Positions 6,770 through 64,000 of a stretch of 64,000 bases of DNA are shown here, piece by piece (position 1 is the first letter of the stretch; the number at the start of each line of letters is the position of its first letter). The stretch is from contig DASXKZ010000011.1 of assembly GCA_036496525.1 (NCBI GenBank), forward strand, positions 27,207-91,206, written 5' to 3'. Source of the stretch: Candidatus Angelobacter sp. (GTDB lineage Bacteria; Acidobacteriota; Terriglobia; Terriglobales; Acidobacteriaceae). The notes beneath the pieces are model-generated. The model ran no database searches. It was given only the letters and a program-made list of their open reading frames with translations, and was not told where the DNA came from. Position numbers and translations under genes: made by a program.

Positions 6770-8020
6770 TTATTCGATTTTTATCTGCAAACGCACATTC
6801 ACCGTTTTTTGTGGATCATCGATTTGCTCAAACATCTTCCAAACCCATTTGTGGCCGGGGACCTTGACGACTGTATTGGCAATGAACTCGTGGACATACG
6901 TAGCGTCATAGGGCGCGCCTTCGGCCAGCCTCCATATTTGCTCTAATTTGTGCGCCTGCTCCGGCTCCACGCCCTGAATTTCCAGCTTGCCCATGTGATA
7001 TAGATCGCCTTCGGTCACCTGAAACCCATAGCTGACAGTATCGTCAACAAAGGCTGGAACCGGCTTGATGATCGCCGCTTCACGCCCGAACTTGCCATAG
7101 AGCTTGCGCACTTGTGTGAGATCGCGATCCAGTTGCAGGGCGTCCACGGGGCTTCCCGGTTTTAAAGTAATGTGTTTGGCAAGCTCGTCACTGGAAATCA
7201 ATGTATTGCCTGACCAGCTAAGGCCCGCGAGCCGATATTGCTCGCCTTCAGACAGCGTCGCTTCTATCGTCACCTGGGATTTATCATCCACTTTTGGCTT
7301 GATGTCAGTAATGGCGAACTTCAGATATCCACGCTGCTGGTAGATGGGCGAAAGATTCTTTTCCAGGACCACAGCAACGTCAGAGCGCAGGTATTCCGTG
7401 CCTTTGAGCGGTTCCACCGCCTTTGCCAGCAGTTCCGGCGCCATGTGGACCGCACCTGCGAGCACGACGTCACGAACTTTCAAATTCGCGCCAGCCACCT
7501 TGAATTTGTATGCCGTGGGCGGCCCTCCAAAGTTGGCGGACATGATGTAGGAAATTTCGTTGGGCAGTCCTTTGGAGGCAAGGAACTTGGCCAGGGCCGC
7601 GGAAACATCGTCTGACATGCTGCCGGAAGTTGGCAGCTCGCCTTTAAAGAGCGGGACTGTCTGCTGCACGGCCGCCTGCAATTCCTGCTCACTGAACCAG
7701 ACAAAATTTTCAAACACTGCGGGAAGATACTTTTCCGCGTCGGTCACCTGAAAATCTGCTTCAACGCCTTTTCCCCCGACTACAGGCTTGAATAGGAACT
7801 GTACGGAGGCAAACGCGCCGCTGTTGCCCAACCGGTTGGCTGCATTTTGCAGATCATCGGCCATGACCTGTGTATTTACGGCCAAGCCTGTGGCGCGGAC
7901 AAGATCGTCTTCTCGATATCTCTGCGAGCCGGTCACCACAATGCGGGCCAAATTGAAATGGTCCGCCGCGCCAGCCATTGCAGGCAGCGAACAAGCGATA
8001 AATAAGAACAAAAGTCGCAT
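6770..8020 (-). CDS. POTRA-repeat protein (BamA-N-terminal-like) without a recognisable beta-barrel
   Basis: The start was moved to ATG 8020 (MRLLFLFIACSLPAMAGA signal peptide); the longer track ORF is an upstream open frame. IVVTGSQRYREDDLVRATGL...LGNSGAFASVQFLFKP and the repeated roughly 80-aa modules resemble POTRA domains. Confidence 0.6.
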   Translation of the reverse strand: MRLLFLFIACSLPAMAGAADHFNLARIVVTGSQRYREDDLVRATGLAVNTQVMADDLQNAANRLGNSGAFASVQFLFKPVVGGKGVEADFQVTDAEKYLPAVFENFVWFSEQELQAAVQQTVPLFKGELPTSGSMSDDVSAALAKFLASKGLPNEISYIMSANFGGPPTAYKFKVAGANLKVRDVVLAGAVHMAPELLAKAVEPLKGTEYLRSDVAVVLEKNLSPIYQQRGYLKFAITDIKPKVDDKSQVTIEATLSEGEQYRLAGLSWSGNTLISSDELAKHITLKPGSPVDALQLDRDLTQVRKLYGKFGREAAIIKPVPAFVDDTVSYGFQVTEGDLYHMGKLEIQGVEPEQAHKLEQIWRLAEGAPYDATYVHEFIANTVVKVPGHKWVWKMFEQIDDPQKTVNVRLQIKIE

Positions 8021-8147
8021 ACAGTGACGAGATATTCTGCCCTGAAAACACGTATCTTGGCTAGCTGCAAGGGCTACACCGCTCAGAACTACTGCATCAA
8101 ATCGTATAAAGCACGTAACCTGCGTATCGATTCTAAGGGCCCGAACA

Positions 8148-9062
8148 ATGAAACCACTTTCAACGTCTTTATTCTTTGCAGCAGTCCTAATTTGCGCCGG
8201 ATGCGGTGGCGTTTCCAGGGTTGTAACCAACCCACCTCCGCCCGCGGCAACGGCAGACCACGTTTTTCTTGTGGTGCTGGAAAACCACAGTTTCGGGCAA
8301 GTGATTGGCAATCCTGCCATGCCGTATTTGAACGGACTGGCCACGGCGCACAGCCTGGCAGCGGATTATTTCGCCAACGCTCATCCCTCCATCCCGAATT
8401 ACTTCATGTTGACGGCGGGAAATCTCGAAACGTTTGACGACAGCTTCACCGGCACTGTCACCGATGACAATATTGTCCATGCACTTACCGGAGCTGGAAA
8501 AACATGGAAGGCATATATCGAAAGCATTCCTTCCGTGGGGTATCTTGGGCCGGATGCGGGAACATATCTAAAACATCACAACCCGTTTTCATATCTGAGC
8601 GACGTTACCGGCTCCGCGACTCAGGCAGCGAATATGGTGCCATTCTCGCAGCTTTCCTCAGATCTTGCCGCCGGATCATTGGCAAACTTTGTTTACATTT
8701 TGCCCAACTCGCAGAATGACGCACATGATTGCCCCGGCGGCGGGACTTCATGCACATCAGACCAGCAGCTTGCCGCAGCCGATGCGTGGCTAAAAGCAAA
8801 TATCGATCCCGTCATCAACAGCCCCAAGTTCGGCAATAGCGTGCTTATCATTACGTTTGACGAATCGGTCACGACCGATGTCACAAATGGCGGCGGCCAG
8901 GTAATGACTGTGCTGGTAGGCCCGCATGTGAAGACCGGCTTTCGGTCATCCACTATGTACCAGCACCAGTCTCTGCTTCGCACGATGCTGCAATTGTTGA
9001 GCGTCAGTGACATGCCCGGCGCATCTGCGGTGGCGCCCTCCATGGGAGAGTTTTTCCAGTAG
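8148..9062 (+). CDS. Phosphoesterase-family lipoprotein (PF04185-like acid phosphatase/phospholipase C family)
   Basis: 304-aa ORF with lipobox LICAGC. Motifs: HVFLVVLENHSFGQV, HPSIPNYF, KHHNPF, NDAHDC, ITFDES. Confidence 0.75.
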   Translation: MKPLSTSLFFAAVLICAGCGGVSRVVTNPPPPAATADHVFLVVLENHSFGQVIGNPAMPYLNGLATAHSLAADYFANAHPSIPNYFMLTAGNLETFDDSFTGTVTDDNIVHALTGAGKTWKAYIESIPSVGYLGPDAGTYLKHHNPFSYLSDVTGSATQAANMVPFSQLSSDLAAGSLANFVYILPNSQNDAHDCPGGGTSCTSDQQLAAADAWLKANIDPVINSPKFGNSVLIITFDESVTTDVTNGGGQVMTVLVGPHVKTGFRSSTMYQHQSLLRTMLQLLSVSDMPGASAVAPSMGEFFQ

Positions 9063-9089
9063 CACTTTTTGTAAATGAGCCAAGTCCTG

Positions 9090-9120
9090 ACCGGCCCTCC
9101 AAGGGCCGGTTTTGCTTTTA
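9090..9120 (+). terminator. Rho-independent terminator after the first phosphoesterase gene
   Basis: accggccc-tccaa-gggccggt stem (8 bp) followed by tttgctttt. Confidence 0.7.
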
Positions 9121-9216
9121 AGGCCCAAATTAACTTGCTGGCGTGCCCATGGCATAAGACCAACATCCAGCAGCTCTGTTGCATCCAAAGTCACTGAAGT
9201 GCAGGAGAACATCCCC

Positions 9217-10197
9217 ATGGGCCCAAAGGTCATATGCTGCTTGGTTTTATCCCTTCTTGTACTTTCGATAGGCTGTGGCGGAGGCGCCATTAGTGCCACA
9301 GGTTCCACAGCATCAGCGACCCCGACACCACCGCCGAGCCCTACACCAACGCCGAGCCCTACACCAACGCCCACAACTTTCCCTGCCGCCGACCATGTTT
9401 TTGTGGTCGTGCTGGAGAACCATGCATTTAGTCAGGTAATTGGCAGCCCTTTCATGCCCTACCTGAACTCGCTGGCAACGCAACATTCTCTGGCGACGAA
9501 TTACTTTGCCGACACACACCCGTCTATCGGCAATTACTTCACGCTTACAACCGGCAATATTGAAACCAATGATGACGCTTTCACCGGAACGGTCAGCTCT
9601 GACAGTATCCCTCGTGCTTTTGCTGTCGCAAGCAAAACCTGGAAAGCATATATGGAGAGCCTGCCTTCTGTGGGCTATACCGGTGGCGATATCTATCCAT
9701 ATTTCAAGCACCATAATCCGTTCGTTTACATGACCGATGTTCTGGGCTCAAGCGCGGAAACCGCCAACATGGTTCCTTTCACCCAAATCACTTCCGACCT
9801 GAATGCCGGAACGCTACCCAGCTTTGCCTTCATCGCTCCCAACGCGGAAGACGATGCGCATGACTGCCCGGCTGGCGGCTCCGCGTGCCTGGATTCCGAC
9901 AAACTCACAGCCGCTGATAACTGGCTCAAGACTCATATCGATCCTTTGATCCAGTCGCCGGAGCTCGCCAACAGCGTTTTCATCATCACATTCGACGAAT
10001 CGCTGGACGTGGATGTTGTGAACGGTGGCGGGCAAGTGGCCATGGTGATGGTGGGAACACATGTGAAGTCTGGATTCAAGTCGACGACCTTCTATCAGCA
10101 CCAAAGCACGCTGCGGCTGGTGTTGGACTTGCTACGGGTAACTGACCATCCCGGAAATTCTGCTACAGCGCCGACGATGCAGGAGTTCTTCCAATGA
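9217..10197 (+). CDS. Phosphoesterase-family lipoprotein, tandem paralog with a Pro/Thr/Ser linker
   Basis: Start set at ATG 9217 (MGPKVICCLVLSLLVLSIGCGG lipobox). It has the same HVFVVVLENHAF / HPSIGNYF / KHHNPF / DDAHDC / ITFDES motifs as 8148..9062, plus a TPTPPPSPTPTPSPTPTPT linker. Confidence 0.75.
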   Translation: MGPKVICCLVLSLLVLSIGCGGGAISATGSTASATPTPPPSPTPTPSPTPTPTTFPAADHVFVVVLENHAFSQVIGSPFMPYLNSLATQHSLATNYFADTHPSIGNYFTLTTGNIETNDDAFTGTVSSDSIPRAFAVASKTWKAYMESLPSVGYTGGDIYPYFKHHNPFVYMTDVLGSSAETANMVPFTQITSDLNAGTLPSFAFIAPNAEDDAHDCPAGGSACLDSDKLTAADNWLKTHIDPLIQSPELANSVFIITFDESLDVDVVNGGGQVAMVMVGTHVKSGFKSTTFYQHQSTLRLVLDLLRVTDHPGNSATAPTMQEFFQ

Positions 10198-10450
10198 AGC
10201 ATCCATTGCACCCTTCCGACCCGCCATCCTGAACCAAGAGTTACTGTATCCCGCTCATCATGCTCACCCCGCGACGTGCCTTCCTGAGCCCGAGCACACA
10301 GCCCTGTTGCCCGATCCATGCTCACCATGCGAAGGCGAAGAATCGTCTCCGCTGTTCTTAAGGATCACCTTATCTGCTTTTTCAGCCTGGATAAGCGTCC
10401 GGTTCGAATTTCAGCCGATATCAATTGGGTACATCTATTCAGGAACCGCT

Positions 10451-11164
10451 TTAGAACCCCATAAACAGCATCTTTTTCGGCGCTTTCTTTTGCGCAAAGG
10501 GCCGATTCAGAAATTCCACCATCGGCGCCATTACCGCAAACCGTTTTGCCAGTTCAGGGACAACGCGTGGGGTGGTGAGCACACTGATCGGGAGCGTGGA
10601 CTCCAGATACCATTGTTTTCGCCGCAGCAACGCTTCAGCAGGATGGTCCACGGGGAAGCCCTTGGGCATGCGGCTTAACTGTTCGCCTTGAAGCTCGCCC
10701 ACCATTTTTTGCAATGACTTGCTCTTGAGTATTGCTGCAAATTCCTCGTGATTCTGTTGCAGCAAGGTTCGATAGGCCATGAGTTCATCGCGGTCCGGCC
10801 CCCATACACCGCCGAAAGCCAGCACTTCTTTTTCCGTGAAATGCAGATAAAAGACCGCGCCCTCACGCTTGACTGCGCTGCTGCGCGGGAAGATGGCGGC
10901 GATATGCGTTTTGTACGGCGTTTTGTCCGGGGAGAAACGCGTGTCACGATAGATTCTGTACACGGCCTTTGCCGGTGGCGTTACGTAGACCGGGGCGAAG
11001 CGGGCAAACTCTTCATTCATGCAACCGACAAATTCCAGCATGGGGCCCTTAATCAGCGCTTCATACTTTTCTTTGCGCGGCTGGAACCATTCACGCCGGT
11101 TGTTGCGCTTGAGCGCACGTAAAAAAGAAATTGCTTCAGGAGAAAAACCGCGGAAACGAGACAT
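10451..11164 (-). CDS. DUF2461 (TIGR02453) family protein
   Basis: 237-aa ORF. FRGFSPEAISFLRALKRNNRREWFQPRKEKYE and YRIYRDTRFSPDKTPYKTH are characteristic of this family. Confidence 0.75.
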   Translation of the reverse strand: MSRFRGFSPEAISFLRALKRNNRREWFQPRKEKYEALIKGPMLEFVGCMNEEFARFAPVYVTPPAKAVYRIYRDTRFSPDKTPYKTHIAAIFPRSSAVKREGAVFYLHFTEKEVLAFGGVWGPDRDELMAYRTLLQQNHEEFAAILKSKSLQKMVGELQGEQLSRMPKGFPVDHPAEALLRRKQWYLESTLPISVLTTPRVVPELAKRFAVMAPMVEFLNRPFAQKKAPKKMLFMGF

Positions 11165-11241
11165 TGATTAATTTTAAATGAGCCAAGCCGCAACTCTGGT
11201 ATTCACCAAGAAAGTCTATGACGATCTCTGCTCCAACCACT

Positions 11242-11916
11242 TCATGGATTCGCTTTTACCAGAATCAGGGCCAGACCGTCATAGCCCTTGCAGCCCACCG
11301 TTTGTATCACGGTGGTGGCGACACGTTTTTCCGCGGCCAGAACTTCGTTGAATTTGCGGATGCCCTGTACGTTTTCATCGGTGCTGGCAGCATCAGCCAC
11401 GGCGCCTTTGCGCACCACGTTGTCCGCGATAATCAATGTGCCCGACCGTGACAGTTTGAGAGACCATTTCAGATATTCAGCATAGCCGGACTTGTCGGCA
11501 TCGATAAAGATCAAATCGAACGGGCCGTGATTTTCCGCTACTAATTTCTGCAGTGAATCTGCCGCACGGCCCACCCGTATCTCAACTGCATTCGCCAACT
11601 CAGCACGCGTAATGTTGGCGCGAGCAATCTCCGCTCGCTTTGGATCAATCTCCAGCGAGATCAATCTGCCATCGGACGGCAAGGCGCGAGCCAGCCAGAT
11701 TGTGCTGTATCCGCCCAGCGTGCCCAATTCCAGGATTTTGCGTGCTCCCTGCACCCGGGCCAAAAGGTTCAGAAGCTTGCCTTGCGCAGGAGACACGTTG
11801 ATGGTGGGCAAACCTGCGGCTTTGCTGGAATCGAGCGCAGCTTCCAGCGCGAAATCATGCTCAATGAAAAGATCGGCAATGTAATTGTCAACGGCTGTCC
11901 ATTGTTCCTGCGCCAT
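11242..11916 (-). CDS. Class I SAM-dependent O-methyltransferase (caffeoyl-CoA O-methyltransferase-like)
   Basis: 224-aa ORF with SAM motif ILELGTLGGYS and DLIFIDADK. Confidence 0.8.
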   Translation of the reverse strand: MAQEQWTAVDNYIADLFIEHDFALEAALDSSKAAGLPTINVSPAQGKLLNLLARVQGARKILELGTLGGYSTIWLARALPSDGRLISLEIDPKRAEIARANITRAELANAVEIRVGRAADSLQKLVAENHGPFDLIFIDADKSGYAEYLKWSLKLSRSGTLIIADNVVRKGAVADAASTDENVQGIRKFNEVLAAEKRVATTVIQTVGCKGYDGLALILVKANP

Positions 11917-12013
11917 GATTTGACTGCCTCATTTGGTTCCCGCCAGCTTATTGCTGACAAAGGGTTTCTTTTGCCGCCTACCCAGTGCTCCCCGGGCCGA
12001 AACACGATTCTAC

Positions 12014-53986: not shown

Positions 53987-54802
53987 CTATTGTATCGGCT
54001 GATGCGCAGGCGCTTCAATCCGGTAAGCCGGACTGCTGGGCATGACGAGTACGCCGCGCAACGTGGAAATAGTTTTGAGCAGCAGATCGGATTTCTTCAT
54101 GGTGATCCTTGCACCACTGGGCGTGGATTGAACCTTTTGCGGCGCAGGATTATCAATTTGTCCTGTATCCAGCGGGAAGAATTCTGCTTGTGTGATCGGC
54201 TTGCCTGCACGGATCGTCAGGACCAAATCGTCTTTTGCCAGCGTGAAACTTGCCTTCCAGCCGGATGGCAACGGTTTGGGGATGAGTTTATACGTCCTCT
54301 CAAAGAGCTGCGCGTGCTGCTGGTCTTCGCTGGCGGCCGATGAGGCAGGCAACGTCAGATGCAGGCTGGCTTGCTCGGGAATGCAGACCTCGCGGCAGAT
54401 GAGCCACTTGGCTTCCGCATCGAATTCAACTGATGCGCCGTTGTTGATTGCAGATGGTGTGTGAATGGTAAGCGGCAGCAAGACTTCGTCGCTATAGCCG
54501 TAATCGACCAGTTCCTTGCTTGGTTGCAAACGCTCAGGGCGTGGCCATTGGATTTCGTCTGCACCAAAGCCGGGAGGCAAATGCCAACTAAAGGAAGGCG
54601 GTTGGCCGGAGTCGCCGGGATTGGTCCAATAAACGTGCCAGCCTTTTTCCAGGATGAAGTGTACGCCCAGTTGCAGGTCAGAGCCTGGTTTTACTGATGT
54701 CTGCCGTGAAATCAATTCCACTGTGGCATGCTGCGTTGCAGCCTGGGAAAGAGTTGCGGCGGAGATGGTGAACACAATGAGTTGGCCGCAGAGACGTCGC
54801 AT
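53987..54802 (-). CDS. Secreted DsbD-N-terminal-like (DsbC/ScsB-type) thiol:disulfide interchange domain protein
   Basis: Start at ATG 54802, with signal peptide. Motifs GWHVYWTNPGDSGQPPSFSW and WLICREVCIP. Confidence 0.65.
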   Translation of the reverse strand: MRRLCGQLIVFTISAATLSQAATQHATVELISRQTSVKPGSDLQLGVHFILEKGWHVYWTNPGDSGQPPSFSWHLPPGFGADEIQWPRPERLQPSKELVDYGYSDEVLLPLTIHTPSAINNGASVEFDAEAKWLICREVCIPEQASLHLTLPASSAASEDQQHAQLFERTYKLIPKPLPSGWKASFTLAKDDLVLTIRAGKPITQAEFFPLDTGQIDNPAPQKVQSTPSGARITMKKSDLLLKTISTLRGVLVMPSSPAYRIEAPAHQPIQ

Positions 54803-54927
54803 ATTCGTGCTGACTGTCACGGAGATAGTTTACGCAATGAAAGCAGGCGACAAAAGCGCTTTTCACGGAGCATCAAAAAAGCGCCGGCTTTTGACCGGCG
54901 CTTTGTGAATCAAGTTTGAAGTTGAGT

Positions 54928-56550
54928 TTACGGCAGCACGTATTTCAAGCTGACATAACCCATCATCAAGTGAGCATTCTTGGGCGCTCCGGCTGCAACG
55001 AACCAGGGGGAACGCGTCACGTACGAGGTTTGCGTGACCAGTAAAACAGCGCCGTATTGCGGGTTCTTCCAGAAAGTTTGCGTCCAATCGAACGACGCTT
55101 CCTGAATAGAGCGGTTGGCCGAATTGGGTGAGTTGATGCCGCCGAAACCAATGGTCGGCTTGACAGCCAGAGGCGAGGTTACGTCCTGGAAAGCGTTGCG
55201 CTGATAGTAGAAACCGCCGTAATAGAAGCCGAACAGGCTCTTCTTGCCTGCTTGAAGCTCCGACCCAACGATAGTGGCGCCCGAGTGCACCATAGAGACA
55301 TCGACATCAAACGTACCGGGGCCGGTCGCTATCGGAACAACAACCGCCTGCGGTCCAAAACCGATCAGGTAGCGTCCGTTGCCGCTACCCCATAGGCCGT
55401 TGGCCACCACGCGGAAGCCTTTAGCCACTTCAAAGTTGAACGCGCCATGGAAGCTCCCGCCAATCGCCGAATGGTGAACGAAGGTGGTCCCGCCGACGGG
55501 TACATTCGTAATTTTGACGTTAGTAAGAAAACCGCCAGCCTCAAAGTGCATGTGCTTTCCGTTTACATCATTGTCCCAGGCAAATTTGGTATGGATGTCA
55601 GGGAAGGCATTCGGTGTAGTTGTCTGGTTAGCGGCGTCCAACTGCGGGCCCAGTTGTGCGTTGAAGGCGAACGGGAAAATAACTTCGCCGGCGCCAACAA
55701 ACTGGTCGGGATTCTGCATGGCAACGCCCCACTGGAAGGTGTCACTGAAATGGTAAACGGCGCGGAATTCAGCCGCACGGGTGTAAGGTAGACCCACGTG
55801 AGTCTGGGCGTCCTCACCGATGGGTGAAAAGACATCAGCTGGATTGGGAGATAGGCCGACGCGGTTAGGAGTTTGCAAGCCCCACGTCTGGCCACCCAAA
55901 AACTCCCACTTGCCACGCTTCAGATCAAGCCAATAGAGGCGCAGCCGGTTGGTGTGGGGGTTCGAGCTGACAAACACGTTTGCCGCATCGTTGCCATTGA
56001 AGTCGCCTTCAATGTAAGCCACTACGTTGTTCTCGCCGTACTTGCCTGCAACCTTCAGGTTATAGCGCGAATACTGGCCGGTGGAGCGAAATTCTGTGAG
56101 ATGTCCCTGTACGGTATTGCTGAACGGGATCGTGCCAAAGGCAGTTGTGGTGCTGCCTCCCGTGTTGGTGGTGCGGAACACGTTTTCAAAGTCCACGAAG
56201 CCGCCTGGCGTAAATTCCGTGCCGCCGATGCGGAATGACAAGGGCGACTCTTTCGGCTTTTCAGTTTCCTGAGTGACCGTGGCGCTTACCGGCACTGCTA
56301 CTGTGCGCATGGAGGCATCGGCCACGTGGGGTGTGCCAGACGTCTTATTTTCCAGTTGCTGTTCCAGAGTCTGGATCTGTTGTTGTTGCTGGGAAATTTG
56401 TTTTTGCTGCTGGCTGATAGCTTCGCGCAACGCTTTCAGCTCATCTGCAACTGACCCGGTCCCGGCAGAGCCGCTATTGGTTGCGGTTGCCTGGCCCACT
56501 GCCAGCCCAGAGGCCAGCACCACGAAACACATCTTCTCTAGCAATCTCAT
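54928..56550 (-). CDS. Putative outer-membrane beta-barrel porin with an N-terminal Q-rich coiled coil
   Basis: 540-aa ORF with signal peptide. ELKALREAISQQQKQISQQQQQIQTLEQQLE is followed by alternating beta-strand-like sequence rich in G/Y/F/N. Confidence 0.5.
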   Translation of the reverse strand: MRLLEKMCFVVLASGLAVGQATATNSGSAGTGSVADELKALREAISQQQKQISQQQQQIQTLEQQLENKTSGTPHVADASMRTVAVPVSATVTQETEKPKESPLSFRIGGTEFTPGGFVDFENVFRTTNTGGSTTTAFGTIPFSNTVQGHLTEFRSTGQYSRYNLKVAGKYGENNVVAYIEGDFNGNDAANVFVSSNPHTNRLRLYWLDLKRGKWEFLGGQTWGLQTPNRVGLSPNPADVFSPIGEDAQTHVGLPYTRAAEFRAVYHFSDTFQWGVAMQNPDQFVGAGEVIFPFAFNAQLGPQLDAANQTTTPNAFPDIHTKFAWDNDVNGKHMHFEAGGFLTNVKITNVPVGGTTFVHHSAIGGSFHGAFNFEVAKGFRVVANGLWGSGNGRYLIGFGPQAVVVPIATGPGTFDVDVSMVHSGATIVGSELQAGKKSLFGFYYGGFYYQRNAFQDVTSPLAVKPTIGFGGINSPNSANRSIQEASFDWTQTFWKNPQYGAVLLVTQTSYVTRSPWFVAAGAPKNAHLMMGYVSLKYVLP

Positions 56551-56624
56551 TGAGCTTATTCTCCTCTGCTTCTTCGTTGTTGTCGGCCCATCAAGGTGAT
56601 GATTACGGTCCCCTTGGTGTCTCT

Positions 56625-56640
56625 CGCAACTCAGGAACCA
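56625..56640 (-). promoter_or_regulatory. Candidate sigma54 -24/-12 promoter for the porin gene
   Basis: On the minus strand, TGGTTCCTGAGTTGCG has GG and TTGC at the canonical TGGCAC-N5-TTGC spacing. It lies about 75 nt upstream of ATG 56550. Confidence 0.45.
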
Positions 56641-56686
56641 AATTGTGGCTGAAACTCGCGTGTCAATTTCACACCATAATTGCCTA

Positions 56687-56750
56687 CTTGTACATACTTA
56701 TGTACAAGGAAATACAACACCTTTGGCATATGACCTTCCAAATTTGGAAG
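56687..56750. promoter_or_regulatory. Two palindromes upstream of the sigma54-like element (possible enhancer/operator sites)
   Basis: CTTGTACAT-ACTT-ATGTACAAG (56687-56708) and the perfect 16-bp palindrome CTTCCAAATTTGGAAG (56735-56750). Confidence 0.4.
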
Positions 56751-56807
56751 AAAAACGGAGGGCAAATCTTAAACTTAATAGATCAGTTGCTCCAGGCAGG
56801 AAAATGG

Positions 56808-56839
56808 CGGTTCGGACGAGCAGCAAAGGTTCCGAACCG
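56808..56839 (-). terminator. Possible terminator after the transglutaminase-like gene
   Basis: On the minus strand: cggttcgga-(14 nt)-tccgaaccg followed by ccattttcc. Confidence 0.4.
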
Positions 56840-56863
56840 CATACAAATTGCTCCAAAAGTGAT

Positions 56864-57850
56864 TTATCTTGCAGCGCGGGTCGCTCCCCCTCCGTCGGCA
56901 ACGTCGCTAAATGAGACTGCATTGGCCACGTTGGGCCAGGGCTCCCCACCCAGCTCGACATAAGGGAAAATCAAGTAATTGACTCGATCACCGTGTTGTG
57001 CAGGATTGAGTTGCAGGTCGCGTCCCACACTGAACTGCACGCGATTCACATCATGAGCGCCAAAAAAGTATTCTTTCTTCTCCTGGTGCTTCCAGGCTTC
57101 TGAAATGTCCACGGGGAACCAGCCGCGCTCGCGGGTATAAAACTCCGCCCAGCAGTGGTAACCGGCAATCTGTCCGGAGTTCTGGCCTTCCGGCAGTGAC
57201 AGTCCCATTTCAAAACGCGCGGGAATTTTCTGTGAACGCGCCATGGAGATAAAGACTGAATGGAAATCAGTGCAATTGCCATGCTTGGCGTCGCAAGCCC
57301 AGAGCGTATCGCCGCGACCCCAGCCAGTGCCGGTCTTGTCATATTTCATGGTCGAGAATGTGTAATCGTAAAACGCGCGCCCTTTGTCCAAATCAGACAT
57401 GCCCGGCCTGACCTGAGCTGCGGCGAGTTCGGCAGGCTTGCCTGTAATCGGCACCAGTTTGTCTGCCTGCAAAAAGCGTTGCAGGCTCTTTTCCGAAGCG
57501 GGCTGTTTGAGCGACACCGCGGCTAGATGCTCCAGACGCACCACATCATATTTAACGGTGAAGTGATACTCGGGCTGGGTGGCCTTGTCCGTGTGAGCAT
57601 AAAACATCTTATTGCCGTACTCAGGCTCAGTGGTCTCCTTGAGCGAGAGATCGCCGCTCTTGGAAAGCACTTTTACCTTCTGGAATTCGTCGGACTGGGC
57701 TACCGGAAACCATACGTCGAGCGGTTTGCCGGGATCGGTGATGCGAACGGTGAAAGAGTAATTCAATTCAAAGTGGCGCGACTTGCTCTGGGCAAAGGCG
57801 CAAAGACTGAACAACAGAAACAGCGAGACAGCAGAAATTCTGCGGAGCAT
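56864..57850 (-). CDS. Secreted transglutaminase-like cysteine protease-fold protein
   Basis: 328-aa ORF with signal peptide. Cys-His-Asp layout in HGNCTDFHSVF ... GYHCWAEFY ... WFPVDISEA. Confidence 0.8.
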   Translation of the reverse strand: MLRRISAVSLFLLFSLCAFAQSKSRHFELNYSFTVRITDPGKPLDVWFPVAQSDEFQKVKVLSKSGDLSLKETTEPEYGNKMFYAHTDKATQPEYHFTVKYDVVRLEHLAAVSLKQPASEKSLQRFLQADKLVPITGKPAELAAAQVRPGMSDLDKGRAFYDYTFSTMKYDKTGTGWGRGDTLWACDAKHGNCTDFHSVFISMARSQKIPARFEMGLSLPEGQNSGQIAGYHCWAEFYTRERGWFPVDISEAWKHQEKKEYFFGAHDVNRVQFSVGRDLQLNPAQHGDRVNYLIFPYVELGGEPWPNVANAVSFSDVADGGGATRAAR

Positions 57851-58167: not shown

Positions 58168-59655
58168 TCACTCCGCCTCCGCCACAAACTCACCAGTCTC
58201 AATCTTGCCTGCTCTCTTGATCTGCACAAAGATGCGATAGTCGCCCGGCTTGGGGAAACCATAAGGGAAGGAAATCTCTGCAGAAGGTGCGGCGTTATCC
58301 ATGCCTGCCATACCTGACTTGGCGCTGCCGCCTTCGGCCAGGTTTACCGCAGCCATGGACACAGAACCAGCGGGATGGATGTGAGCAAAAACATTGCCGT
58401 CTGTGCTAAGGAAAACTGCATGCGCAGCCATGCCCATGTAAGGCTCAAGATCGGAGGCGGGCTTGCCGTCTTTATCTTCCACGCGGAAGCGGAACCAGTA
58501 AGGCTGGCTGGCTTTGAGCTTCGTAATCGCGCGTCTTTCGCCGTTAGGGCCTGGAGGAATATCGCTTTCCCATACCATGTGATAACCGCCGGAAAGCTGC
58601 GCGACTTTATCGGACGGAGCCAGATCGAATGAACCGGAATCGTCGCCGCTCAACGCTTCGCCCGTAACAGCGGGCAAATTCACCGTGGCAACCTGCGTTT
58701 CAGGAAAGCCAGTATGATGGACAATGTCCGCATAAAGTTTGTACTGGCCTTCGGGCATGATGGGCAGGTTCACCGCAAAGTCACCGGGCTGGGTCTGGTC
58801 AGGATGCAGGTGCCAGAAAGCTTTCATATCCGGCATGCGCACAATAAAAAGATGCATGAGATGACCGTGGTCTGGGATGAGGTCATCCAGGCGGATGCGG
58901 TCCGGTTGCTCCGTGCGAAAGCGCGTTGGCTCAGCCTCATTGGGATTATCAAGATGCAGGCGCAGCAGGCTTCCTGACGTTAGCGACGGAGTCATGTTAG
59001 GAAGGCGATAGTTGAGGCGATCATTGGCGCTGGCTTCACTACCCCACCACTGATTGCCAAGAATGAACGCCGCCAGTACGATCGCAGCGGCAATCGCCAG
59101 GCCGATGCGTCCGCGGCGCATCTGCGCAGGAGCAGGGCGTTCACCGGCATTCAATTCTGCGTCACGCGTGGCCGCGAAGATGATGCCGATCAAGCCAGCC
59201 GCCAGCGCCAAACCCAAAAAGGCCAGCAAAATGCCCAGACCGGCGTGCATCGGCTGCGAACTGGTGGAGACGGCCGGGAGAGGCACGTCAAGCTGTGCGA
59301 CGCCTTTTTGTCCGGTGACCTGGATCTGCACCTTCCATGAACCGCGCACCATGATCCACAAACTGCCGGTAAAGAGTTGGGGATCGTCTGCCGACCTCTT
59401 GGCTGGATCAGGCAGTGGCGCCATCTTTGCACCAACGCCAATCATCCGCAGCGGCAGAATCTTTATCTCACTTACATCGCTCGACATACTGCGAATCTGC
59501 ACCTGCGCCACGCCCGGCACCACAGCAGGCGGACGCAACGTGACCAGCAGATGGTACGGCCCGGCATAGCCGTCAAAATAAACATCGGGGCTGTTCACGT
59601 GAGCAGTGCCCGCGAGGGGCAGCAGCAGGCATACGCATTGAAAAAATCGTTTCAT
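58168..59655 (-). CDS. Secreted/membrane-anchored hypothetical protein with His-rich repeated modules
   Basis: Start at ATG 59655 (MKRFFQCVCLLLPLAGTAHV). There are two central TM helices. Two similar modules are FWHLHPDQ...GQYKLYADIVH and FAHIHPAGS...GDYRIFVQI. Confidence 0.55.
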   Translation of the reverse strand: MKRFFQCVCLLLPLAGTAHVNSPDVYFDGYAGPYHLLVTLRPPAVVPGVAQVQIRSMSSDVSEIKILPLRMIGVGAKMAPLPDPAKRSADDPQLFTGSLWIMVRGSWKVQIQVTGQKGVAQLDVPLPAVSTSSQPMHAGLGILLAFLGLALAAGLIGIIFAATRDAELNAGERPAPAQMRRGRIGLAIAAAIVLAAFILGNQWWGSEASANDRLNYRLPNMTPSLTSGSLLRLHLDNPNEAEPTRFRTEQPDRIRLDDLIPDHGHLMHLFIVRMPDMKAFWHLHPDQTQPGDFAVNLPIMPEGQYKLYADIVHHTGFPETQVATVNLPAVTGEALSGDDSGSFDLAPSDKVAQLSGGYHMVWESDIPPGPNGERRAITKLKASQPYWFRFRVEDKDGKPASDLEPYMGMAAHAVFLSTDGNVFAHIHPAGSVSMAAVNLAEGGSAKSGMAGMDNAAPSAEISFPYGFPKPGDYRIFVQIKRAGKIETGEFVAEAE

Positions 59656-59671
59656 CAAAATGGTGCACTCC

Positions 59672-59789
59672 AAAATCGGGAAATCGAGACATCGGGACAT
59701 CGGTTCCGCTTCGGCGTTTTTGGCAATCCTGAGGTCCCCTAAATAAGTCCCGGATGGCCCGACGACCCGATCACCCGATTACCCGATCT
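59672..59789. repeat. Word-tandem inverted-repeat element E10
   Basis: aaaatcgggaaatcgagacatcgggacatcgg (59672-59703) faces cccgacgacccgatcacccgattacccgatct (59758-59789). The words are ATCGGGA / (G/C/T)ACCCGAT. Confidence 0.75.
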
Positions 59790-61054: not shown

Positions 61055-61507
61055 TCAGTCTGAAGAGGGGCGAGTTGAATGTGCAGAATTTGTGGTCAAA
61101 GCAGCCGTATCGCCCAGCGTTGCCGTTACCAGCTCCGTATCCATGTACTCTGTAATCTCTTTGAGTTTGCCGTCATGCAGGCGAATCACAAAACAATAAG
61201 CATTGTTATATGGCTTGCCCGTCTTCGTGATATTGTTGCCGCGCGCTTCCACTACAACGTAGTCGCCTTCAGCAATAAACCGGTGGCCAATAGTTTTAAT
61301 TCGGCCATCAATCCGCGCCCGCAACTGAGCAAGCAAACCTTCAAGGACCTTCTGTTTGCCCTCATACTTCCCTGACCATCTATTATTGCCGGTTACGGTC
61401 CAGCAGAAATCGTCTGCCATGCTCTCCACCAGTGGACGTGAATTGCCCTGGGCCAGCTCATCAAAAATGCTCTGCACGATTTGCTTGTTCTCAACTGCGC
61501 TCATCAT
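61055..61507 (-). CDS. SnoaL/NTF2-like (ketosteroid-isomerase-fold) protein
   Basis: About 150 aa. NKQIVQSIFDELAQGN...DDFCWTV.G......GKYEGK..V......L...I and Y.VVEARG....KTGKPYNN.YCFV..L.DGKI are typical of the SnoaL_2 fold. Confidence 0.7.
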   Translation of the reverse strand: MMSAVENKQIVQSIFDELAQGNSRPLVESMADDFCWTVTGNNRWSGKYEGKQKVLEGLLAQLRARIDGRIKTIGHRFIAEGDYVVVEARGNNITKTGKPYNNAYCFVIRLHDGKLKEITEYMDTELVTATLGDTAALTTNSAHSTRPSSD

Positions 61508-61573
61508 TCCTCTCATTCAGAAACAGAGAAAGATAAAAGAACGGATCCTCAAAAGCCTATTGTTCTAGTTTGC

Positions 61574-63643
61574 TTATGCCAGGGCCAGAAGACGCTGCTG
61601 GCGCAGTATCTCAAGACCTGCCAGGCATACTTTGTCCACCGGAATGCCCGGGATATCGATATTACGCAGCACGAATTCTCCTGTAATCTCCTGGACCGTG
61701 AATCCGTCTGCACAAAGATCCAGCAATTGTGCGGAGAGCGGAGTGAGCTGGCGCACTTCCGCTGGTGCTGCCGGGACCTTGCGAATTGCGAGCTTCACCG
61801 GCTTGCTCGGTACGTCATGCAATGGGCTTTTCTGCCGAAGCCGACGAACAATCTCATGATAGTCTGCGGGAAGGTTGATGACCTTTACTCCCGGAAGCAA
61901 CCGCAGGCGGCTTTCGGGGAAGAGCAAGTCCTCACTATCATGGAACAACGCATCGGGAAGCAGCTTTTGATCGTCGCCGATATTGTCCGCAAGCACCCCC
62001 GCTTCGTATTCCACCAGGGCGGTGATGGCAAGAGGCGCTTTGTTGTCCGGAACGTATTGCAATCGTACAAACTCAAAGAAGTCGGCGGGAAATTGGCTTT
62101 GCGCGTAGTAAGACGTGCGATCACCGTTGGAGAAATGGATTCCATTTGAGGTGCGCCATTGCCGCCATTGCTGAAAGACGTCCACTATGTCGCCGCTGTC
62201 CTGATGTAGTCCCAGGAGAAGCTTGCGAAATGCGCGCATGCCGCTCAGCAGAAAGTCGCGCAGCTCCTTAAGGAATTCGCGGTCGAGGTGCGGCAGAGGA
62301 GTTGAATAAAAGCTGGAGAAGATTTCCGGATGCGCGGCAATGATCGCGTGATCTTCAGGCTCCTGCCGCCAGCCGCGAAATGACATATCGGCGACATCGT
62401 CATTCAGGACTAGCGAATCCTTGTGCTGTGTGGTGATGGGCGTGGCTGCCAGCGGCGCCAGGATGCTGAGTTGCGGATCGGCATGGTCATAGCGCAGAGA
62501 ATCCACAAAGAACGCAGCGGTATCGCGCAGGTCAGACATGGTTTCATCGGGAAAACCGGCCATCAATGAGACCGCTGTATTGATCTTGAATTTGTCGCAG
62601 GAGCGGACACGTTCCTCGGAATCGTTCAAGTCGAGTCCCTTGTCGATGACTTTCTGCATTCGCCGTGAGCCGGTCTCAATGCCGAAGAAAATCCCGCGGC
62701 ATCCTGCGCGAGACATCAGCGCGATCAGCTCTTCGTCAACGCAGTCCGTGCGCGCGCTGCAGCCCCATATGAAAGAGTCTTCCGGGGCCTTCCGCTTGGC
62801 CTCCAGCAAGGCCTCACAAAATGCCACCACGCGCTTGCGGTCCACGGTAAACATGTCATGCACCAGCTCAAAAGAGTTGATGCCGTATGTCTGCCGGACG
62901 CGGCGCATATCGGCAATCATCTGCGCCGGACTCTTCAGTCGGAAATTGCGGCGAAAAAAATCGTTGGTCGAACAGAACGTGCAGGAAAAAGGACAGCCGC
63001 GGCCCAGCTCCAGCGGAAAGTGACGGCAGTGGCGAACATCTGGAAAGAGATGAAAAGCGGGAAATGGCAGGGCATCCAGGTCCGCGACCAGCGGCGCGGC
63101 CGGGTTGCGCACGATTTCATTTTGCCGGCGAAACGTGATGCCCGGGATTGCAGCAAGAGATTGACCTCCGCTTAGCGCGTCAATCAGCTCGGGAAGCGTC
63201 TGCTCGGCTTCTCCGCGCACCACCAGGTCAATCGATGGGAATGCGCGCATGGTGGGAATATCGACAACGGAAGCCTGAGGGCCGCCCAACACAACTATCG
63301 AGTTCGGATGTGTGCGCTTGACCTCAGCAGCGATGCGCAGCGTCACGGGGTAGCTGCTGCAAACCGTACTGAGGCCGAAGAAATCAAAATCGCGGTGTGC
63401 GAAGTAATCTGCAGCAAAGCCGCAAAAATCAGTTTTATCGCGATTCGAATCCCGTAGCCATTCATAGTAAACGCGATTCAGGTCGACAACTTCCGGCTGC
63501 AGGCCTTTGGCTTCCAGCACGGCGGCAAGGCTGAGCACGCCGACAGGAGCAAGCTCGCCCATGATGCGGGCTGCATCCGCTTCGCCCACAACACGGCCAT
63601 CAAACTGGTTGGCTGTGGGAGCGCTGATAAGACAAACCTTCAT
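61574..63643 (-). CDS. B12-binding-domain radical SAM enzyme with a long C-terminal extension ending in a PqqD/RRE-like segment
   Basis: Start at ATG 63643 (MKVCLISAP; GTG 63652 is also possible). The N-terminal Rossmann-like B12 domain has VVLGGPQAS. The radical SAM motif is GRGCPFSCTFCS. The last roughly 70 aa (EVRQLTPLSAQLLDLCADGFTVQEITGEFV...VDKVCLAGLEILRQQRLLAL) resemble PqqD-type winged helices. Confidence 0.8.
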   Translation of the reverse strand: MKVCLISAPTANQFDGRVVGEADAARIMGELAPVGVLSLAAVLEAKGLQPEVVDLNRVYYEWLRDSNRDKTDFCGFAADYFAHRDFDFFGLSTVCSSYPVTLRIAAEVKRTHPNSIVVLGGPQASVVDIPTMRAFPSIDLVVRGEAEQTLPELIDALSGGQSLAAIPGITFRRQNEIVRNPAAPLVADLDALPFPAFHLFPDVRHCRHFPLELGRGCPFSCTFCSTNDFFRRNFRLKSPAQMIADMRRVRQTYGINSFELVHDMFTVDRKRVVAFCEALLEAKRKAPEDSFIWGCSARTDCVDEELIALMSRAGCRGIFFGIETGSRRMQKVIDKGLDLNDSEERVRSCDKFKINTAVSLMAGFPDETMSDLRDTAAFFVDSLRYDHADPQLSILAPLAATPITTQHKDSLVLNDDVADMSFRGWRQEPEDHAIIAAHPEIFSSFYSTPLPHLDREFLKELRDFLLSGMRAFRKLLLGLHQDSGDIVDVFQQWRQWRTSNGIHFSNGDRTSYYAQSQFPADFFEFVRLQYVPDNKAPLAITALVEYEAGVLADNIGDDQKLLPDALFHDSEDLLFPESRLRLLPGVKVINLPADYHEIVRRLRQKSPLHDVPSKPVKLAIRKVPAAPAEVRQLTPLSAQLLDLCADGFTVQEITGEFVLRNIDIPGIPVDKVCLAGLEILRQQRLLALA

Positions 63644-63841
63644 GATTGCCACTTATTTGGACTGCACATGGACGATAGCGCGTCATTGCCGATCAAACTG
63701 ATCGACTATCGTGGATGAGTTTCTTGCGATTTCCTTGCAAAATTGCAAGCCCAGCCCAAGACTTTTTGTCTTGGGTGGGCACAGCGAATCAATGAGCGTT
63801 GACACATCGCCGGCTACATATCTGCCGGCCTTGCATTGCGA

Positions 63842-63991
63842 TTAGGAGGGAGGAGGCTCATCGACAGGGACATCGCATCCCATGTTGGTGACCAACGTAT
63901 TTTCAAATGCCTGCCTGAGCTCTACGACCTGAGGCTGGGTCAACCCCAGTTCAGGAACTGTGCGTGCAGCTTCCTGCAGCTGATTGGCCAT
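63842..63991 (-). CDS. Short ORF (49 aa if ATG 63991 is the start), a possible precursor peptide; the reading frame stays open to the window edge
   Basis: MANQLQEAARTVPELGLTQPQVVELRQAFENTLVTNMGCDVPVDEPPPS, verified codon by codon. AAGG lies 4 nt before the ATG. There is no in-frame stop between 63992 and 64000, so a longer protein cannot be excluded. Confidence 0.35.
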   Translation of the reverse strand: MANQLQEAARTVPELGLTQPQVVELRQAFENTLVTNMGCDVPVDEPPPS

Positions 63992-64000
63992 GTGCCTTGC

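Follow-up and report, generated by a model that had tools for sequence, protein, structure and literature searches.

Closest described systems

ApyD is a B12-dependent radical S-adenosylmethionine (SAM) enzyme that carries a recognition element for ribosomally synthesized peptides that are post-translationally modified (RiPPs), the RiPP recognition element (RRE), and methylates its precursor at the beta position of the penultimate Tyr (PMC10635010). In the bufferins, RREs of the DUF2063 type work with precursors that bear signal peptides (PMC12710340, PMC11626156). The enzymes of TIGR03975 (rSAM_ocin_1; PoyB/C type, clavusporin enzymes) C-methylate ribosomal peptides, and their precursors have NHLP or Nif11 leaders. 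Here we describe a locus at the right edge of a 64,000-nt stretch of Candidatus Angelobacter DNA (GCA_036496525.1, contig DASXKZ010000011.1, positions 27,207 to 91,206; hereafter the window). We consider it probable that this locus is a minimal operon that modifies ribosomally made small proteins. It comprises two genes for small proteins, pepA and pepB, and the gene of a B12-dependent radical SAM enzyme to which an RRE is fused.

The window ends within one of the small genes, pepB, which was completed on L001, an 87-kb Joint Genome Institute (JGI) metagenome contig. The enzyme is identical on 6 metagenome contigs, one of them L001, which shares the same genes on both sides and reaches past the window edge. 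With one genome scanned per species, 79 loci were obtained, and the genes of L001 were placed on them by tblastn; the full-length enzyme homologues are found in loci L006-L037.

The enzyme resembles ApyD in being a B12-binding radical SAM protein with an RRE; the site of ApyD action is close to the C-terminal end of a ribosomal precursor, as is proposed here. The precursors differ: those proposed here are unrelated, have no GYLYD motif and include one with a signal peptide. Moreover, among the called genes of L001 and the related loci we found none of the apy-type partners, namely the multinuclear non-heme iron oxidases (MNIOs) ApyH and ApyI, the P450 ApyO, the methyltransferase ApyS and the ApyA precursor.

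The bufferins are similar in that their precursors have signal peptides and end as exported small modified proteins. However, the RRE of our locus is a fused part of a B12 radical SAM enzyme and does not work with an MNIO, the signal is twin-arginine translocation (Tat)-like rather than of the Sec type, and the peptide family is unrelated to DUF2282. A bufferin system was rejected since there is no MNIO. With the enzymes of TIGR03975 the locus shares the architecture of the catalytic part (115 bits), whereas those enzymes lack a fused DUF2063-type RRE and rely on different leaders. The NHLP and Nif11 leader profiles did not match the small proteins even at E values up to 10, and such a system was rejected because no such leader was detected.

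The logic of the enzyme is familiar, as by analogy it would work in the way of a class B radical SAM RiPP maturase guided by an RRE. What is new is the precursor family and the pairing of precursors with a Tat-like signal and without a signal with a fused DUF2063-type RRE. A full-text literature search returned no paper joining twin-arginine, RiPP, precursor peptide and radical SAM. We are dealing with an uncharacterised peptide-modification cassette, abundant in soil Acidobacteria, the function and chemistry of which we infer. With just two or three genes (the putative substrate or substrates and one enzyme), it is a simple target for learning the reaction of its clade. If modified pepB is indeed exported by Tat, a bufferin-like logic, in which general secretion replaces a protease and an exporter, would extend to radical SAM chemistry.

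Small proteins pepA and pepB

The complete pepB gene (L001 9494-9802) encodes 102 amino acids, MSEPKDEVKGLDRRAVMRGALAVGGASILGGVSAMPQNAVISEREWARVLARHMANQLQEAARTVPELGLTQPQVVELRQAFENTLVTNMGCDVPVDEPPPS. It starts about 150 nt past the window edge and is preceded by GGAG 8 nt upstream of its ATG. The original prediction had read a shorter minus-strand open reading frame (ORF) at 63842..63991, with AAGG as its ribosome-binding site. The translation holds as quoted, but the start does not. The ATG at 63991 is internal to the 102-aa ORF of L001, and AAGG is internal coding sequence of pepB. The Met once taken for the first residue is residue 54 of pepB, where homologues have Val or Ile. Because several homologues are without an internal Met, the N-terminal extension must be translated. 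The accompanying caveat, that the ORF might be the C-terminus of a larger protein, proved apt: it is the C-terminal half of pepB. The full ORF nevertheless stays below the length of about 120 aa above which the prediction would have seen an ordinary protein.

The N-terminus of pepB, which lies outside the window, has an RR motif followed by a hydrophobic stretch and by VSA, after which the mature part would begin. It reads LDRRAVMRGALAVGGASILGGVSA, with M as the next residue. This signal appears to be twin-arginine-like, and one homologue (P0012) is annotated by NCBI as a TAT-signal protein. About 120 nt upstream of pepB, also outside the window, we observed a signal-less paralogue, pepA, which encodes 63 aa (MPQAVITVEQEWARALARFVANQLPQAVGQVRDIQLNADQVAVLQRAFENTLVTNMGCEITTP); its first residues align directly after the proposed VSA cleavage site of pepB. 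We found no further copies of the peptide elsewhere in the window. The cassette is thus organised as pepA-pepB-enzyme or pepB-enzyme.

Upstream of pepA, a promoter-like box (TTGAAG/TTAAAG-N17-TATATAC, L001 9104-9140) is placed about 45 nt before the gene and conserved in about 9 loci. Between this box and pepA lies a strictly conserved ribosome-binding site with a strong Shine-Dalgarno sequence, CTGGAGGAA. The position of the box suggests that the genes form one transcription unit.

Both small proteins and the signal region are under purifying selection: the ratio of nonsynonymous to synonymous substitution rates (dN/dS) is 0.19 for the mature part of pepB, 0.15 for pepA and 0.28 for the signal region. 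In the AlphaFold2 model of pepB the signal region is disordered, two helices span residues 43-64 and 72-89 (predicted local distance difference test, pLDDT, about 74-85), and a disordered tail starts from Met90-Gly91. Eleven residues are invariant in 13 diverse members of the family (E43, W46, A51, R52, A61, L70, Q74, F82, L86, M90 and G91). After Met-Gly there follow a Cys and a variable tail of 2-12 aa, except in two loci (L018 and L038), where the sequence continues as 'EDSDETP...' and has no Cys.

Clustered at 90% identity, the peptide family comprises 657 groups. A comparison with 1.84 billion representatives found matches in only 17 clusters at 50% identity. The family is thus abundant in soil metagenomes yet phylogenetically narrow. 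When the small proteins were scanned against Pfam and NCBIfam, no precursor family came up, and the weak TAT model was the only match. Public records list the peptides as 'hypothetical' or 'TAT signal', and the enzyme as 'radical SAM protein' or 'B12-binding domain-containing radical SAM protein'. No curated name exists for the peptide family or the enzyme family, and no Pfam or NCBIfam family is devoted to either.

Domain content of the enzyme

In its domain content the enzyme is a class B (cobalamin-binding) radical SAM protein (Table 1). Pfam and a motif search confirmed the 689-aa enzyme with an N-terminal B12-binding domain and a CPFSCTFC motif that the original prediction had described, and the cobalamin-binding domain scored 47.1 bits against a cutoff of 32.1. 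The helical linker that follows the catalytic core is conserved to about aa 536 in all homologues, including 536-aa variants without an RRE.

The best NCBIfam match was ApyD (NF050148), with 339 bits and an alignment covering profile positions 25-482 of 645. It was followed by BchE with 147 bits and by HpnJ, TIGR03975 and other B12-binding radical SAM families at 147 or less. We rejected the enzyme as an ApyD equivalog, as its score compares with a cutoff of 750 bits, the profile is matched in part and the gene context fails. Solved structures with related sequence are all B12-binding radical SAM enzymes (9ccb, AprD4, TokK, CysS, OxsB and TsrM). More than 2,000 proteins are close relatives of the enzyme (E <= 1e-50).

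C-terminal recognition element

The last 111 residues were modelled with AlphaFold2 on an alignment of 41 metagenomic homologues (42 rows). These came from a protein search with a profile of the C-terminal domain, which gave fragments from contig ends only. The model is confident (pLDDT 90.7; predicted TM-score, pTM, 0.74), with the order b-b-a-b-b-a-a-a-b. Its fold agrees with that of RREs, a winged helix-turn-helix made up of three helices and a three-stranded sheet. When it was compared with the Protein Data Bank (PDB) by Foldseek, the top matches were RRE-containing proteins (probability 1.00, TMq 0.54-0.74). The best was chain A of the TglHI holoenzyme (8hi7_A, 8hci_A; TMq 0.67-0.74), followed by NGO1945 (3dee); since the latter is a homologue of the TglI partner, we take chain A to be TglI. 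Also matched were the lasso-peptide B1 proteins 6jx3_B and TbiB1 (5v1u, 5v1v), solved with leader peptides bound, and, further down, the cyanobactin oxidase ThcOx.

Sequence comparisons point in the same direction. The C-termini of homologues share the pattern '..L..LS.L.A.LL.LCDG.RTV.EI....L......LL..L...GLI'. When 14 of them were scanned singly, PqqD (PF05402) was matched by 9 (best E = 9.7e-5), NGO1945_C by 4 and PaaA-like_N by 3. All three are RRE-type domains. Some metagenome fragments bear precomputed PF05402 or PF22106 assignments, and the enzyme itself has a weak match of the HvfC/DUF2063 type (NF050145, aa 519-650, E = 0.017). TglI, NGO1945 and HvfC are thus the described proteins that this domain most resembles, the structural matches being the best ones and those to NGO1945_C and HvfC by sequence being weak. 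The profile of the C-terminal domain matched designed helical repeats alone among PDB sequences, which is uninformative.

We conclude from the model that the C-terminus of the enzyme has an RRE fold, more precisely of the DUF2063 C-terminal (NGO1945_C) type, and is predicted to bind a precursor. The PqqD-type C-terminus read earlier in the sequence is therefore recovered, though by way of the homologues, the model and Foldseek and not from the sequence of the window protein.

Conservation of the cassette

Strict co-occurrence links the small proteins to the enzyme. All loci in which the enzyme is at least 60% identical (about 15; L006-L019 and L038) contain pepA and/or pepB together with it. 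Their hosts are Ca. Angelobacter and other Terriglobia, and the flanking genes differ.

In the more distant homologues (39-49% identity; L020-L029 and L031-L037) another small ORF lies directly upstream of the enzyme gene in 17 out of 17 loci. These loci belong to Bryobacterales, Acidobacteriaceae, Edaphobacter and Terriglobus. The ORFs encode 60-130 aa, end just before the enzyme gene and fall into several unrelated-looking families. Their sequence pattern is that of strand-helix-strand, and most end in a hydrophobic strand ('..hxhxx(E/M)G', where h is hydrophobic) with a tail of 0-7 aa. The order of genes in the distant loci (at about 7000-12000 in each) is always a Ser/Thr kinase of about 970 aa, the small ORF and the radical SAM-RRE enzyme; in 7 of them an ECF-sigma-like gene precedes the kinase. 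The concern that homologues of the enzyme might have no neighbouring short ORF is thus not borne out, as the same family accompanies it in about 15 loci and other small ORFs do so in 17.

This conservation bears on the possibility that the small proteins serve as partners or regulators or come from unrelated genes, with the enzyme's substrate being a small molecule (for example a lipid or a tetrapyrrole), in the manner of HpnJ or BchE. Both families are indeed among the weaker NCBIfam matches. However, the enzyme has a fused RRE, a domain known for binding precursor peptides, and more than 30 loci retain a small ORF directly upstream of it even though their other neighbours change. We regard this explanation as highly improbable.

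We found no protease or exporter conserved with the cassette among the neighbours of the related loci. This matters for a second explanation, a classical leader-core RiPP, in which the helical region would be the leader and a protease acting at or near Met-Gly would free a peptide of 5-12 aa (for instance CEVTTP or CDVPVDEPPPS). The tail after Met-Gly is the sole hypervariable part of the small proteins, as are many RiPP cores, and it is predicted to be disordered; ApyD, too, acts on a C-terminal pentapeptide. Against this stand the missing protease and exporter, as well as the length of the tails, which are very short and in the distant clades almost or wholly absent (the small ORF of L029 ends ..KTEG). 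The N-terminal Tat-like signal also argues for export of the whole protein. Taken together, the evidence makes a leader-core arrangement unlikely.

The earlier reading of the locus as a RiPP-like cassette is therefore supported in its outline, with corrections to the start codon and the downstream genes and with the addition of a second precursor gene and a Tat-like signal.

Proposed mechanism

We propose that pepA, pepB and the enzyme gene are transcribed together, as the anatomy of the locus suggests. The RRE would dock on the small proteins at their conserved N-terminal part, near PQxAVxxE-EW and the helix-loop-helix, and the helical linker might perhaps bind them as well, given the variants without an RRE. 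The flexible C-terminal segment at the invariant Met-Gly (..FENTLVTNMG-C-tail) would enter the active site and become modified. If ApyD and further radical SAM enzymes of class B are a guide, the most likely reaction would be methylation of an unactivated carbon. We favour C-methylation because ApyD methylates its precursor and because the remaining curated relatives with peptide or protein substrates are also C-methyltransferases.

After modification in the cytoplasm, pepB would, by analogy, be exported by means of its Tat-like signal and trimmed by signal peptidase after VSA. In turn pepA, the same mature domain without the signal, would stay in the cytoplasm. Export of pepB by its own signal would explain why neither a dedicated protease nor a dedicated transporter is conserved in the cassette. 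What results is probably a modified protein about 65 aa long, with the helical scaffold retained as in bufferins, and not a short released peptide. Retention of the scaffold is probable because there is no conserved protease or exporter, pepB has a signal peptide and the distant clades are nearly tailless.

Several observations weigh against this mechanism. The twin-arginine model TIGR01409 gave 15.1 bits for pepB, just under its cutoff of 16.7. The score with ApyD is far below the cutoff of that family, and the alignment stops at position 482 of 645. PqqD was not matched by the sequence of the window protein itself, even in a direct search with its last 258 aa. Two loci (L018 1732-3342 and L038 10001-11611) encode a 536-aa enzyme from which the whole RRE is absent, preceded by two peptide genes with 'MGEDSDETP...' tails. 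As peptide genes persist beside these RRE-less enzymes, recognition may not depend on the RRE, and as Glu replaces Cys in their peptides, Cys cannot be the universal target. Finally, B12-binding radical SAM enzymes also catalyse reactions other than methylation, an example being the C-C cross-link made by PbsB (PMC12257519).

The last point leads to the main chemical alternative, in which the same substrates would receive a cross-link or a rearrangement near Met-Gly-Cys, such as a C-C or C-S bond. PbsB belongs to a RiPP pathway, and the Cys is invariant within the Angelobacter peptide family. On the other hand, among the curated families with peptide or protein substrates, the best matches are methyltransferases (ApyD, TIGR03975 and the methyl-coenzyme M reductase, MCR, glutamine C-methyltransferase), and the Cys gives way to Glu in the two RRE-less loci. 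Cross-linking or rearrangement thus seems to us possible but rather doubtful, with C-methylation remaining the most likely chemistry.

More tentatively, and with less confidence than we have in the operon itself, the cassette could represent an undescribed class of exported small proteins modified by radical SAM enzymes, in which a Tat signal replaces the protease and exporter and a paralogue stays in the cytoplasm. The products might then act in signalling or stress sensing and not as antibiotics. Such a role might follow from the sister clades, in which the homologous enzyme and the small ORF always come after a Ser/Thr kinase and often an extracytoplasmic function (ECF)-type sigma factor.

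Spacer between pepB and the enzyme gene

The three inverted repeats that the original prediction placed between the small gene and the enzyme gene are all present in the 198-nt spacer (Table 1). A 204-nt stretch made up of the pepB stop codon, the spacer and the ATG of the enzyme folds better than shuffled sequences (z = -3.4). The length of the spacer ranges across the loci between 86 and 421 nt. Of the stem-loops, only the first, which comes immediately after the pepB stop, keeps its position. Its sequence differs from locus to locus (GCCGGC/GCCGGC, GGGCT/AGCCT, CAGCG/CGCTG). RNAalifold gave a weak consensus of 6 pairs for this hairpin, and in most loci its stability, taken alone, does not significantly exceed that of shuffled sequence.

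A scan of the spacer revealed no terminator with a U-tract, and Rfam returned no family for the spacer and the upstream region. A cobalamin riboswitch, which we had considered for these regions, was likewise not found by the Rfam search. The spacer might take part in processing of the transcript or in its attenuation, as the original prediction had supposed for a hairpin; a role in setting the ratio of peptide to enzyme transcripts is plausible.

In one locus (L014 9583-10003) the spacer reaches 421 nt, and about 100 nt of it are duplicated in tandem. Since it measures 86-222 nt in the other loci, the spacer appears to be an insertion hotspot.

Neighbouring genes

Table 1. Positions of the cassette and of neighbouring genes in the window.
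Feature	Position	Strand	Evidence or remarks
pepB, 3' part	63842..64000	-	Last 52 codons and stop; end of helix 1, helix 2, invariant Met-Gly, Cys and variable tail; MGCDVPVDEPPPS
Spacer, 198 nt	63644..63841	-	Stem-loops at 63809-63829 (gccggc-N9-gccggc), 63755-63775 (cccaagac-aaaaa-gtcttggg) and 63734-63749 (cttgcaa-tt-ttgcaag)
B12-binding radical SAM enzyme with fused C-terminal RRE, 689 aa	61574..63643 (including stop)	-	Pfam, NCBIfam
Cobalamin-binding domain, aa 27-156	63176..63565	-	PF02310, E = 2.6e-12
Radical SAM core, aa 215-381	62501..63001	-	PF04055, E = 1.5e-18, 67.9 bits
CPFSCTFC (CxxxCxxC [4Fe-4S] motif), aa 217-224	62972-62995	-	Read in the sequence
Helical linker between catalytic core and RRE, about aa 421-578	61910..62383	-	Homologue alignment
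RRE (predicted), NGO1945_C/PqqD type, aa 579-689	61577..61909	-	AlphaFold2 model, Foldseek, Pfam matches of homologues
SnoaL_2 protein	61055..61516	-	Same strand, follows the enzyme
510-aa protein	58168-59700	-	Without a Pfam family

The genes that the original prediction listed downstream on the same strand, for a SnoaL protein, a multi-pass membrane protein (397 aa) and the 510-aa protein, are present, but they do not belong to the cassette. We rejected them as members because they are syntenic in the closest loci, L007 and L009, only; elsewhere the downstream genes are unrelated. The 510-aa protein had been described as His-rich and secreted. It has an N-terminal signal-like segment and four HxH-type motifs (HGH, HLH, HH and HIH), but with 2.9% His overall it is not His-rich, and its two central hydrophobic segments mean that it is not simply secreted.

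Further along the same strand (window 54000-57850; L001 17112-21289) lie genes for a transglutaminase-core protein, a 540-aa protein whose N-terminal part is coiled-coil-like, a DsbD_N protein, a redoxin and an Rsm22-like methyltransferase. As the last four sit upstream of the cassette in L038, we treat these genes as part of the neighbourhood and not as partners.

On the other side of the cassette, L001 has a gene for a 463-aa WD40 beta-propeller and a ParE pair, upstream and on the opposite strand. The WD40 gene gave no BLASTP match (E <= 1e-3) to proteins near the distant homologues, kinases included. The ParE-toxin gene and its 84-aa upstream partner (L001 5972-6543, past the window edge) are likely a toxin-antitoxin pair.

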